The notes under the pieces were generated by a model, which worked only from the letters and a program-made list of their open reading frames with translations, did not search any database and was not told the DNA's origin. This document shows, piece after piece, positions 12,812 to 16,751 of a stretch of 64,000 nt of DNA. The stretch lies in assembly GCA_000004695.1 (NCBI GenBank), contig CM000155.2, positions 1,184,001 to 1,248,000 on the forward strand, given 5' to 3'. The DNA comes from Dictyostelium discoideum. Lineage: Eukaryota. The stretch's first letter is position 1, and each line of letters starts with the position of its first letter. Position numbers and translations under genes: made by a program.

Positions 12812-15800
12812 ATGTTGGGATTATTTAATAATAGTAATAGTATTAATGGTAGTGGTAATAATCAAGATATAGATGAAATAAAAAGGGAACAAATGTAAAT
12901 ATAAATATATACATATTTTTAGTTCAATCAATAAAAAGACATACTAATTTTTTTCAACTTTTTTTTCCACCCTTTTTTTCCACTTTTTTTTTTTTTTTTT
13001 AGGAGTAATTTTGATCAATTTGAAGATGGGTTAAACAATAATAATAGTAATAATAATAATAATAATAATAATAGTAATAATAATAATAGTAACAATAATG
13101 AAAATATTAATAGAAAAACAGGATCAACATTATTATCATCATCAACCAGTCAACTCAATAGTAGTAGTGGTCAAATATCATTCTCAAAGGATGCTGTTGC
13201 TCCGACAAAAAAGAGAAGATATATTGTTGACAAAGATCACATTTTTTCATGGACACCATATTGTAAAGCCTATTGGAATAAATTAATTAATGTTTATGGT
13301 GTTGAACTGTAGGTGCAAATTGTTATTATTATTATTATTATTTTTATTATTATTTTATTATTATTATTCAACTCTATCTTTTTTTTTTTTTAACTGATAA
13401 CAACAAGGCATACACCAAAATTTCATTATTTTCATTTTTCCAACCTTTTCGTACATCCCTTTCACGAATTTTTTATTTTTTATTTTTTTCGCAAAAATTT
13501 TTGTGAATTGTTTAACAAAACCAAATTAAATAATCAAAAACTTGCAAATAATAATTATTCAATTTTCATACTCACTTTTTTTTATACCAAAAAAAAAAAA
13601 AAAAAATAAAAATAAAAAAAAATAATAATAATAATTATAGCGAACCACCACAATTAAATGTTTCAGCAGAAAAAGGATTTTCATTTAGTGAGGTTGATAA
13701 TTCATGGATTTATTATAGAAGAAATCATTTTCAATTAGGTATTGGAGTTTCACATTGTTTTCAATTTTTGGAATCATCACCACCACTAATTAGTTTAAAT
13801 GGATCTATTTACCCAGTTGATGATTTCTATTTATGTATTAGGGGTGTTAAAAATGGACCAGATGTAAATATAAATGAGGAAGTGGAGGTTGAATTATATC
13901 AAACCAATTCAAAACGTGAAAAAGGTGAAGAGAAATTACCACCACCAGTTTTAATGACATTTTCAACCAATGTAACAATACCAAGATTACATTTTAGAAA
14001 AGCAACCGCAAACAATGCTAGAAAACATAAATTACCAAATCCACAACAAGAATTCTTTAGATTAGTTTTAACAGTTGTAGCAAGAGCTCAATCTCGTGAT
14101 TTTTGTATCACTTCAATGATCTCTGATCCATTAATAGTTAGAACTGGTCATCCAACTTGTAATCCAGTTTCAAATAATCCAAGTACTCCAGGTACACCAA
14201 TTAGTAATTTTGATAGTAGTAATAATAATAATAGTAGTAGTAGCAGCAGCATCATCAATAATAATAATAATGGTATTAGTGGATATTCACCACATACAAC
14301 CGTTACAACCAATTCAACAACAATAATACCTACATATGGAAGTGGCAATAACAATAATAACAATAACAATAATAATAATAATAGTAGTGGTAATTCATCA
14401 TCTACTTCACCAATGGTTGGACCACTTGGAGTTGTTTTCCCGCCATCACCAATAAATTCATTATCAAACCACAATTCTCCACATTTAACACCAATTCAAT
14501 ATAATAATAATAATAATAATAGTAATAATAATAGTAATAATAATAATAATAATAATAACAACAATAATAATAGTAATAACAACAATAATAATAGTAATAA
14601 TAATAACCATCAATTCCAATCAAATAATAGGATTTTTAAGGGAAATTTAAGTAACCCCTTTGATTTAAATTATTCACAAAATTCAAATAATAATAATAAT
14701 AATAATAATAATAATAATAATAATAATAATAATAATAATAATAATAATAATAATAATAATAATAATAATAATAATAATAATAATAATAACAATAATAATA
14801 ACAATAATAATAACAATAATAATAACAATAATAATAATATATTCAGTCATAATAATAATAATAATAATAATAATAATAATAATAATAATAATAATAATAA
14901 TAATAATAATAATAATAATAATAATAATAATAACAACAACAACAACAATAATAATAGTCAAAATATTCATTTTTATAATAATAATAGCAATAATAATAAT
15001 AATAATAATAGTAGCAGTAGTAATAATAATAATAATAATAATAATAATAATAATAATAATAATAATAAAAATAATAATAATAATGGCAACAATAGTCAAA
15101 TTAATGAAAAACATAATTTGTCATCAAATTCAAATAGTAGTGGTTTTACAGCAGAGCTTTTTTCATCAATAGAAAATACCATAAGAAATAATAATTTTTT
15201 AACACAAAAACCACACTTTCCATTTGATCAAACTTTACATCAATTACAGTTTCAAGCACAAAATAATCAATATGATCAAATTAATGGTAAATTAGACAAT
15301 ATTCATAATAATAGTAATAATAATAGTAGTAATAATAATAATAGTAATAATAATAGTAGTAATAATAATAGTAATAATAATAATAATAATAATGGTAGTC
15401 ACACTGCCAGTGTAAAAAGAAAACTTTCCAATTCATATGACCAACAAAACTTGGAAATTGAATCACCACAATCCTATATATCATCCCCAACACCATACTT
15501 TGTAGATAATAAACAACCACAACCACAACCACAACCACAACCACAACCACAACCACAACCGCAACCACAATCACAATCACAATCACAATCACAATCACAA
15601 TCACAATCACAATCACAATCACAATCACAATCACAACCAATACAACAAATAGTTCAACAACAATTGTCATCACCAACACAATTTTCACAGTCTGAAGAAG
15701 TAATATTATCTTCACCATTACAACAACAAACAATTCAATCAATACAACAACAACAACCACAACAACAAGTAATAACAAATCCATTATTACAACAACCTCA

Positions 15801-16751
15801 ACAACAACAACAAAATATTATATCAATTGGAGATATGGATAAAAATATTAAATGGGCACAATCACCAAATGGTGGATTATTTCATTTTGGTAATGTAGGT
15901 GTAAATAGCGAAAATCCACAAGAGGCATTATCAGTGAATGGTAATGTTTCAATAAGTGGTATGATGTATCAACCATCTGATAAACGTGTTAAAGAGAATG
16001 TTAAACCGGTGAATTCAAAGGATCAATTATCAAATATTATGAAATTAAAGATTTACGATTATCAATTAACCGATGAATGGGTGAAGAGTCAAAATTTAAC
16101 AGAAACAAAAGATCGTGGTGTTTTAGCACAAGATTTAAATACACCTTCTAATCATATTCCAAATTCTGTAAAACATACTGGTGATAGAATACTTGGTAAT
16201 GGTAGAGTAATCAAAGATTTCTTGGTGGTAAATAAGGATGCTATCTTTTTAGAAAATGTTGGTGCAACTCAAGAGTTATCCAAAAAAGTTGATAATGTTT
16301 GTATGGAGTTGGAAACTTTAGATAAAAAGAAATTTGAAATGTTGGGTCATAAAATGAGTGAATTAGAAAGAACTACAATTCGTGAAATTAAAAAAAATCA
16401 AAAAAGAAGTATGTTTTTTTTTTTTTTTTTCTTTATTCAATTATTAAAAATACATACACACACACATACTAACATTTAGTTTTATTTTTATTATTTTTAA
16501 TTTTAGAAAAAATATTTATTGGAATTGGAGTTTTCACATTATTCGTTATTTTTGGTTTAGTTGCGGTTTCAATTGTTTTAGGTACTAGAAATACAATAAC
16601 AAAGAATATTACAGTTTATACAACTGGTTCTCCAGGTTATTTGAATGGCGATTGTACAGATTCTGAAAGTGGTTCAAACTCTTGTTACGATTCATCATCT
16701 AATAGTGCTATTGATACTACTACTTCTACCGGTTCAGGTTCAATAAAATAA
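12812..16751 (+). CDS. mrfA: Membrane-tethered NDT80-type transcription factor (myelin-gene-regulatory-factor-like): NDT80/PhoG DNA-binding domain + peptidase S74 intramolecular-chaperone autoprocessing domain + C-terminal TM helix
   Basis: Exons are approximately 12812..12894 (GTAAAT), 13003..13308 (GTAGGT), 13641..16408 (GTATGT) and 16507..16751. The DNA-binding domain motifs are RRYIVDKDHIFSW, YYRRNHFQLGIGV, LHFRKATANNARK and FFRLVLTVVARAQSRDFCITS. The S74/ICA domain is SDKRVKENVKPV...LKIYDYQLTDEW...GVLAQDL. The last exon encodes IFIGIGVFTLFVIFGLVAVSIVLG. A TACTAAC branch point lies about 30 nt before the last acceptor. The exon has huge in-frame poly-N/Q tracts and (PQ)n(SQ)n repeats. Confidence 0.75.
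14683..15070. repeat. (AAT)n / (AAC)n coding microsatellites giving poly-Asn tracts inside the mrfA exon
   Basis: There are hundreds of nt of aataat... in frame, with the antisense ORFs reading poly-Ile. Confidence 0.9.
15520..15640. repeat. Hexanucleotide (CCACAA)n then (TCACAA)n repeat encoding (PQ)n(SQ)n in mrfA
   Basis: The sequence is caaccacaaccacaacc... switching to caatcacaatcacaa... Confidence 0.9.

Follow-up and report, generated by a model that had tools for sequence, protein, structure and literature searches.

In the MYRF proteins of animals and in MrfA of Dictyostelium discoideum, a chaperone domain of phage type cleaves itself and thereby frees a transcription factor from the membrane of the endoplasmic reticulum (ER), a mechanism that was established in 2013. 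MrfA is the product of mrfA (DDB_G0284183 / Q54PT9): a 104-kDa precursor cleaves itself at S767, within SDLRIKYDLK and with K772 as the partner residue, and yields a C-terminal fragment of 19 kDa; experiments showed this self-cleavage to be constitutive, to depend on the Ser/Lys pair and to take place in the ER. The separation of the DNA-binding domain (DBD) from the stalk by a spacer had previously been noted for MrfA. The protein was reportedly described by Senoo et al. in 2012 and 2013. In the phage endosialidase endoNF, trimerisation of the domain triggers self-cleavage N-terminal to the serine, and a GVIAQ motif has a role in trimerisation in both MYRF and phage (PMC3742440). Three NDT80 genes are deeply conserved in dictyostelids, namely mrfA, DDB_G0292186 and DDB_G0293934 (Forbes et al. 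2019, PMC6873476; Fig. S15 legend and Table S2); all three encode a transmembrane (TM) segment and a chaperone domain, and the last two are prestalk-specific (Table 2 of that paper). Here we describe a gene at 12812-16751 on the plus strand of a 64,000-nt stretch of chromosome 6 of the reference strain D. discoideum AX4 (GCA_000004695.1, CM000155.2, positions 1,184,001 to 1,248,000). We call the whole stretch the window, and all positions are numbered within it. We hold with high confidence that this four-exon gene is functional, that its product is a membrane-tethered member of the MYRF/MRF family of transcription factors, and that the gene is paralogous to mrfA and corresponds to one of the two dictyostelid NDT80 genes without a name, most likely DDB_G0292186. 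The existence and architecture of the gene have already been published (Forbes et al. 2019).

The closest described system is MrfA, from the same organism. Both proteins combine an Ndt80-type DBD, a long low-complexity spacer, a Peptidase_S74/ICA (intramolecular chaperone) module with a Ser-Lys dyad and a C-proximal TM helix, both are without the large luminal domain of animal MYRF, and both have been reported in prestalk biology. However, they are encoded by separate genes on separate chromosomes and share only about 40% identity in the DBD and ICA, as gauged via the MrfA-like orthologues P0159 and P0081. The dyad lies in SDKRVK at S909 in the protein described here but in SDLRIK at S767 in MrfA; the precursors are of 126 and 104 kDa, and the membrane stub is predicted at 25 kDa as against 19 kDa.

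The metazoan MYRF/MYRFL proteins (structures 5yhu, 5h5p, 5zhu and 7dc3) share the order DBD-ICA-TM, the S/K dyad, a GV(I/L)AQ motif, the stalk and the single TM helix. In MYRF, however, the stalk follows directly on the DBD, so that both are found in one 255-residue chain (5yhu), whereas here they are separated by 555 residues rich in Asn, Gln and Ser; unlike MYRF, the 12812-16751 protein has no N-terminal proline-rich region and no conserved luminal domain in its tail, as judged by Pfam. The chaperone of phage tailspikes and endosialidases (endoNF, 3gw6) shares the Peptidase_S74 domain and the same Ser-Lys dyad, but the phage releases a structural fibre and discards the chaperone, whereas here the released part would be a transcription factor and the chaperone would stay anchored in the membrane. 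Yeast Ndt80 and fungal PhoG belong to the same Ig-fold DBD family (PF05224); Ndt80 differs in having no ICA domain (PMC3742440) and in its low sequence similarity.

Gene structure and domain architecture

An earlier note on this DNA had proposed a four-exon, MrfA-type gene, and we found its coordinates and exon structure to hold. The spliced open reading frame (ORF) runs without interruption from the ATG at 12812 to the TAA at 16749-16751; its four exons total 3402 nt and encode a protein of 1133 amino acids (aa) and 126.3 kDa, and the introns, of 108, 332 and 98 nt, are canonical GT..AG introns. The region has 10-35% GC, with a coding part rich in (AAT)n and introns that are short and AT-rich. 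For comparison, the syntenic locus was retrieved from six other genomes by anchoring on the neighbouring genes: an AX4-like assembly, two D. discoideum isolates, two D. cf. discoideum isolates and D. citrinum. With AX4 these make up seven group-4 genomes, in all of which the ATG and all six GT/AG splice sites are kept, including the donors at 12895 and 16409 (GTATGT).

Exon 1 (12812-12894) encodes aa 1-28, ends in phase 2 and is followed by intron 1 (12895-13002; GTAAAT...TTTTAG, 17.6% GC). Exon 2 (13003-13308; aa 28/29-131) carries a poly-Asn tract, a KKRR cluster and the first strand or strands of the DBD, from about aa 107 (13238). Intron 2 (13309-13640; GTAGGT...TTATAG, 16.9% GC) interrupts the DBD, most of which is encoded by exon 3 (13641-16408; 2768 nt, aa 131/132-1053) together with the linker, the stalk and the ICA module. 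After intron 3 (16409-16506; 14.3% GC), exon 4 (16507-16751) encodes a KRKK flank, the TM helix, a 55-aa tail and the stop codon.

The N-terminus encoded by exon 1, M(L/F)G(L/F)FN, resembles the MFGFN start of the orthologues from Polysphondylium violaceum and Tieghemostelium lacteum. At position 12817 the AX4 window has G (TTG, Leu2), while the six other genomes, among them the otherwise identical GCA_054883475.1, all have T (TTT, Phe2). Phe2 agrees with the MFGF start of the deeper orthologues; the G may be either a variant private to this sequence or a reference error.

The DBD, an Ig-fold of the NDT80/PhoG family, occupies 13238-14154 (aa 107-301, as delimited by alignment with 5yhu). It matched Pfam PF05224 (NDT80_PhoG) with an E-value of 2.5e-21 and 77.2 bits, against a curated cut-off of 27, and the DBD structures of MYRF (5yhu, 5h5p and 5zhu) with E-values of 1e-25 to 1e-26 (1.5e-26 for 5yhu); the match to the structure of yeast Ndt80, 1m6u, was weak (E 5e-3). 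The earlier note had spread this domain over three exons; it lies in exons 2 and 3 only. The blocks YYRRNHFQ, YQTNSKREK, PRLHFRKATANNARK and LIVRTGHP are kept across Dictyostelia. Three basic residues of mouse MYRF that contact DNA, K399, R454 and R478, correspond to R111, R177 and R254 of Ndt80. By a hand count of residues in the 5yhu alignment, K399 aligns with R157, in YYRRNHFQ, and R478 with R245, in PRLHF. Just upstream of the DBD, the basic cluster KKRR (aa 97-100, 13208-13219) is a candidate nuclear import signal; orthologues from Cavenderia fasciculata, P. violaceum and T. lacteum keep it as KK(R/K)RY.

The second conserved part of the protein, at 15847-16407 (aa 866-1052), consists of a beta-helical stalk, the ICA autocleavage module and a C-terminal helix. 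Pfam recognised both Peptidase_S74 (PF13884; E 6.1e-10, 39.7 bits against a cut-off of 22) and MYRF_ICA (PF13887; E 5.1e-8, 32.4 bits against 24.1), and the ICA structure of MyRF, 7dc3, was matched over 177 residues, stalk included, with an E-value of 5.7e-35. Consistent with this, an AlphaFold2 monomer model of aa 859-1052 had 7dc3 as its best Foldseek match (E 4e-8, probability 1.00). The predicted catalytic dyad lies in the motif S909-D-K-R-V-K914 (15976-15993), and cleavage is predicted just N-terminal to S909. Within its context, PSDKRVKE, the residues S909, D910, R912 and K914 were invariant in alignments of 14 and 8 sequences that span dictyostelid, MrfA-like and other MYRF-family proteins, and S909 and K914 are unchanged in all seven group-4 genomes. 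The pair is the counterpart of S767/K772 in MrfA and of S911/K916 in endoNF; in 7dc3 the motif aligns with P-A-D-L-R-A-K, where Ala occupies the Ser position. Further downstream, GVLAQ (16117-16131, aa 956-960; RGVLAQ at aa 955-960) is the counterpart of the GVIAQ trimerisation motif, and its G, V, A and Q were invariant in the same two alignments.

The hydropathy profile of the protein (Kyte-Doolittle) exceeded 1.6 in one peak only, at aa 1052-1084, with a maximum of 2.83. This sole strong hydrophobic segment holds the TM helix, I1055-G1078 (16512-16583), directly after KRKK, and the KRKK(I/L)F junction and the helix are kept in four deep orthologues. By the positive-inside rule, this arrangement suggests a cytosolic N-terminal part and a luminal tail. 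The tail, of 55 residues, is rich in Ser, Thr and Cys and has one N-I-T sequon; no luminal-domain family was found in it by the Pfam scan of the protein, which returned only NDT80_PhoG, Peptidase_S74 and MYRF_ICA. The NDT80 and S74 domains, the single TM helix in the final exon and the MYRF-like order of these elements, all claimed in the earlier note, were therefore recovered.

Conservation and selection

The repeats of the gene raise the question of a decaying duplicate, that is, a pseudogene or an uncleavable membrane protein in which repeats expand freely. About 26% of the residues are Asn, the repeats are highly unstable, and the gene tables of the syntenic loci carry no precomputed Pfam entry for the gene, all of which would suit such a duplicate. 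Against it, none of the seven genomes has a broken ORF, and net exon indels are without exception divisible by three, while intron indels are of any length. Exon indels that seemed to break this rule in three loci (L003, L005 and L006) were discarded, as they proved to be adjacent, compensating gaps placed by the aligner within repeats; the net coding sequence stays in frame and has no stops.

Identity to AX4 is 96-100% in the DBD, 98-100% in the stalk and ICA and 100% in the TM helix where this is complete. The ratio of nonsynonymous to synonymous substitution (omega, by Nei-Gojobori) is 0.00-0.08 in the DBD, 0.02-0.04 in the ICA and 0-0.16 in the TM helix and tail. For the linker we obtained 0.30-0.39, values that are approximate since the repeats align poorly. 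The DBD and the ICA are thus under strong purifying selection, and the dyad, GVLAQ and the TM helix are unchanged. Moreover, orthologues are conserved across the dictyostelid taxon groups, and, if the assignment of the identifier is right, the gene is expressed and prestalk-enriched (Forbes et al. 2019). A non-functional duplicate is accordingly extremely improbable. Because its domains are conserved and omega is low in the DBD and ICA, we conclude that the gene is functional.

Identity of the gene

The family assignment in the earlier note, 'MrfA-type', stood up to all the tests that we ran; as a statement of identity, the comparison with mrfA failed on cleavage motif, size and locus. Could the gene nevertheless be mrfA itself, the characterised prestalk regulator? 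The order of domains and the organism are the same, and MrfA is likewise rich in sequence encoded by AAC repeats. However, MrfA has S767 in SDLRIKYDLK, K772, a 104-kDa precursor and a 19-kDa C-fragment, whereas the protein described here has SDKRVKENVK at S909/K914, a mass of 126.3 kDa and a predicted C-fragment of 25 kDa. The locus differs too: mrfA is DDB_G0284183, whereas the ORFs that flank our gene on chromosome 6 match exactly DDB_G0292108/Q54DN9 (a helicase, 8584-11073, minus strand), part of Q54DP1 (2-ketogluconate reductase) and part of Q54DN3 (exportin-7). These mismatches of motif, size and location led us to reject the identity with mrfA, to which we give practically no chance.

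What the gene is instead was addressed through its homologues. An exhaustive HMMER scan with the ICA region returned 2576 homologues among 1.84 billion representative sequences. The best were dictyostelid, from C. fasciculata (F4PYX5, 63% identity), P. violaceum (68%) and T. lacteum (60%), and also from Synstelium and Acytostelium. P. violaceum and Synstelium have two copies each: one is 58-68% identical to our protein, and the other is only about 40% identical and has the exact SDLRIK of MrfA. Since both species have both copies, the 12812-16751 gene and mrfA are, by this comparison, old paralogues. A word-indexed homologue search was less productive: it returned no match for the DBD query and three for the ICA and TM query, and a profile of eight ICA sequences retrieved only short fragments, missing even its own full-length members.

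The gene has the features of the unnamed NDT80 paralogues of Forbes et al. (2019), as it encodes a DBD, a chaperone domain and a TM helix and is distinct from mrfA, and it has orthologues in Cavenderia, Tieghemostelium, Polysphondylium, Synstelium and Acytostelium. It must therefore be DDB_G0292186 or DDB_G0293934, and is probably the former. From the numbering of the neighbours' accessions, its protein record would be expected to be XP_629834 / Q54DN8. In the supplements of a 2026 proteome paper, mrfA was the only one listed.

The acceptor of the last intron

The earlier note had left open whether the last intron ends at 16479 or at 16506; the comparison of the seven genomes picks 16506. The TACTAAC branch point that it had pointed out is present at 16467-16473, as the sole plus-strand copy in the window, and its ACTAAC box, about 30 nt upstream of the 16506 acceptor, is kept in all seven genomes, as is the acceptor AG itself (16505-16506). 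A second AG, at 16478-16479, is the first one past the branch box; it keeps the reading frame and yields an uninterrupted ORF. If the transcript used it, a protein of 1142 aa would result, with nine more hydrophobic residues (ILFLLFLIL) ahead of the TM helix. However, the G that completes this AG is found only in AX4 and its near-identical counterpart, the AX4-like assembly; at this position the remaining five genomes show T or a gap and read ...ACTAACATTTAT... or similar. Furthermore, all deep orthologues keep K(N)xKR-KK(I/L)F across the exon 3/4 junction, and the AX4-like assembly is independently annotated at 1133 aa, not 1142. The cryptic AG also follows the branch A by only about 8 nt, a distance that is usually too short for an acceptor to be used. 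All together, we consider use of the 16479 acceptor very unlikely.

Models projected with the 16506 acceptor gave intact ORFs of 1133, 1151, 1177 and 1094 aa, exactly the lengths that the independent annotations of these assemblies give for the product. To judge from these comparisons, the acceptor of intron 3 is the one at 16506, because the AG at 16479 is specific to the AX4 lineage, the junction is conserved in the orthologues and the projected lengths agree with independent annotation. Two features of this intron may be recorded in their own right. In the AX4 lineage, a T-to-G change created the in-frame cryptic acceptor about 8 nt past the conserved ACTAAC, and in D. citrinum (L003) the intron carries a long (AAT)n expansion that is not found in the D. 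discoideum strains, with ACTAAC and the acceptor still in place.

The linker and its repeats

Between the DBD and the stalk lies a low-complexity linker of 555 residues (14182-15846, aa 311-865), 66% of which are Asn, Gln or Ser. It contains (AAT)n tracts of up to 34 perfect units, and its Asn runs reach 51 and 35 residues. In exon 3 as a whole, Asn and Gln make up 36% of the residues, and N/Q runs of at least 3 cover 23%, so that the figure of about 40% homopolymeric Asn/Gln given in the earlier note was too high. What had been taken for a perfect 120-nt hexanucleotide repeat is a (PQ)9(SQ)11 tract at 15517-15636, in which two hexamers follow each other, 9 x CCACAA (with one variant copy, CCGCAA) and then 11 x TCACAA. 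An antisense ORF of 167 aa (15281-15784, minus strand) falls within the repeats that encode (PQ)n(SQ)n and poly-Q and has no Pfam match; we rejected it as a gene, and it looks like a by-product of repeat composition.

The slippage potential ascribed to these repeats was correct, and polymorphism of repeat length between strains is real. Across the seven genomes, the longest Asn run varies from 33 to 72, (PQ)n from 1 to 9, (SQ)n from 2 to 13 and the protein from 1094 to 1177 aa. In the five genomes that are not AX4-like, the linker is 76-93% identical to that of AX4, with 107-227 gap columns. At a strict threshold, no linker motif was conserved across the deep orthologues; KRKLSN was shared with P. 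violaceum alone. The repeats of the linker thus behave as a freely length-variable spacer.

Within this hypervariable region, the island SVKRKLSNSYDQQNLEIE (15409-15462, aa 720-737) is invariant in the seven group-4 genomes. It is recognisable, and partly shared, in P. violaceum as HKRKLSNTDDQY. The island looks like a candidate nuclear localization signal beside a Ser for a basophilic kinase, and it is possible that it serves as a handle for regulated nuclear import of the kind described for MrfA.

Gene neighbourhood

From 6069 to 20837 the gene order is tkrA 2-ketogluconate reductase (plus), a BLOC1S3-domain gene (plus), the DEAD/Helicase_C helicase DDB_G0292108 (minus), the 12812-16751 gene (plus), a patatin-like phospholipase (plus) and galactokinase (plus). 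The order from tkrA to our gene is kept in the six loci fetched. The downstream genes were visible only where the locus extended far enough, namely a patatin-like gene in D. citrinum and, in L001, an unannotated gene of 348 aa and galactokinase. Elsewhere in the window, a single-exon ORF of 1153 aa (22957-26415, plus) encodes two N-terminal SH3 domains (SH3_1/SH3_2, about 1e-25) and a C-terminal Glutaminase domain (5e-26), an unusual fusion.

Discussion

The reading of this locus as a functional mrfA paralogue, most likely DDB_G0292186, has to be weighed against several observations. Neither spliced model found an exact match in a collection of 15 billion proteins, and the sole basis for preferring DDB_G0292186 to DDB_G0293934 is the closeness of its identifier to that of the neighbour DDB_G0292108. 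The identifiers DDB_G0292186, DDB_G0293934 and DDB_G0292110 were absent from the main text of the literature searched, where matches to 'mrfB' were unrelated; since these identifiers do not appear there, the gene seems functionally uncharacterised. In the DBD, the contact residue R454 of MYRF falls at a one-residue alignment gap, beside the conserved SKR (YQTN-SKREK). As for the cleavage module, the AlphaFold2 monomer model was of moderate quality, with a predicted local distance difference test score (pLDDT) of 73 that fell below 50 in the stalk, and the phage endoNF chaperone, 3gw6, was a weak second in the Foldseek search (E 0.12, probability 0.41). The low score of the stalk is consistent with the MyRF crystal structure, in which this fold is formed by a trimer.

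The following mechanism, including trimerisation, cleavage, topology, localisation and target genes, is inferred by homology to the MrfA and MYRF experiments. The protein would be inserted into the ER membrane by its single C-proximal TM helix, with KRKK and the N-terminal part in the cytosol and the short tail in the lumen. The stalk/ICA module would then trimerise, and Lys914 would activate Ser909 for attack on the preceding peptide bond. Cleavage would release a fragment of about 101 kDa (aa 1-908), in which the disordered Asn/Gln-rich linker joins the Ndt80-type DBD to the trimeric stalk, and a stub of about 25 kDa (225 aa) would be left in the membrane. Under regulation, the freed trimer would move to the nucleus and control genes of the prestalk lineage.

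A more speculative proposal is that MrfA, the 12812-16751 protein and the third paralogue form mixed trimers in the ER via their related stalk/ICA modules, and that the linker, through its length, serves as an adjustable tether. The factor released from such trimers would combine as many as three different DBDs, each on a long and flexible Asn/Gln tether, which could account for the need for three distinct DNA elements in the MrfA-responsive region of the ecmA promoter, and the strain-variable linker length would then be a tunable parameter of reach. The ICA domains of the paralogues are, however, only about 40% identical, and we regard mixed trimers as unlikely.

As both the mechanism and the set of three genes were already published, the significance of these results goes little beyond bookkeeping. 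The analysis contributes a verified gene model for one of the paralogues, last acceptor included, and quantifies an in-frame repeat-length polymorphism (1094-1177 aa) that is restricted to the spacer by which the DBD is set apart from the trimerisation stalk. The strong purifying selection makes this paralogue worth a knockout, and it may reasonably be suspected of acting redundantly with mrfA when prestalk cells differentiate.

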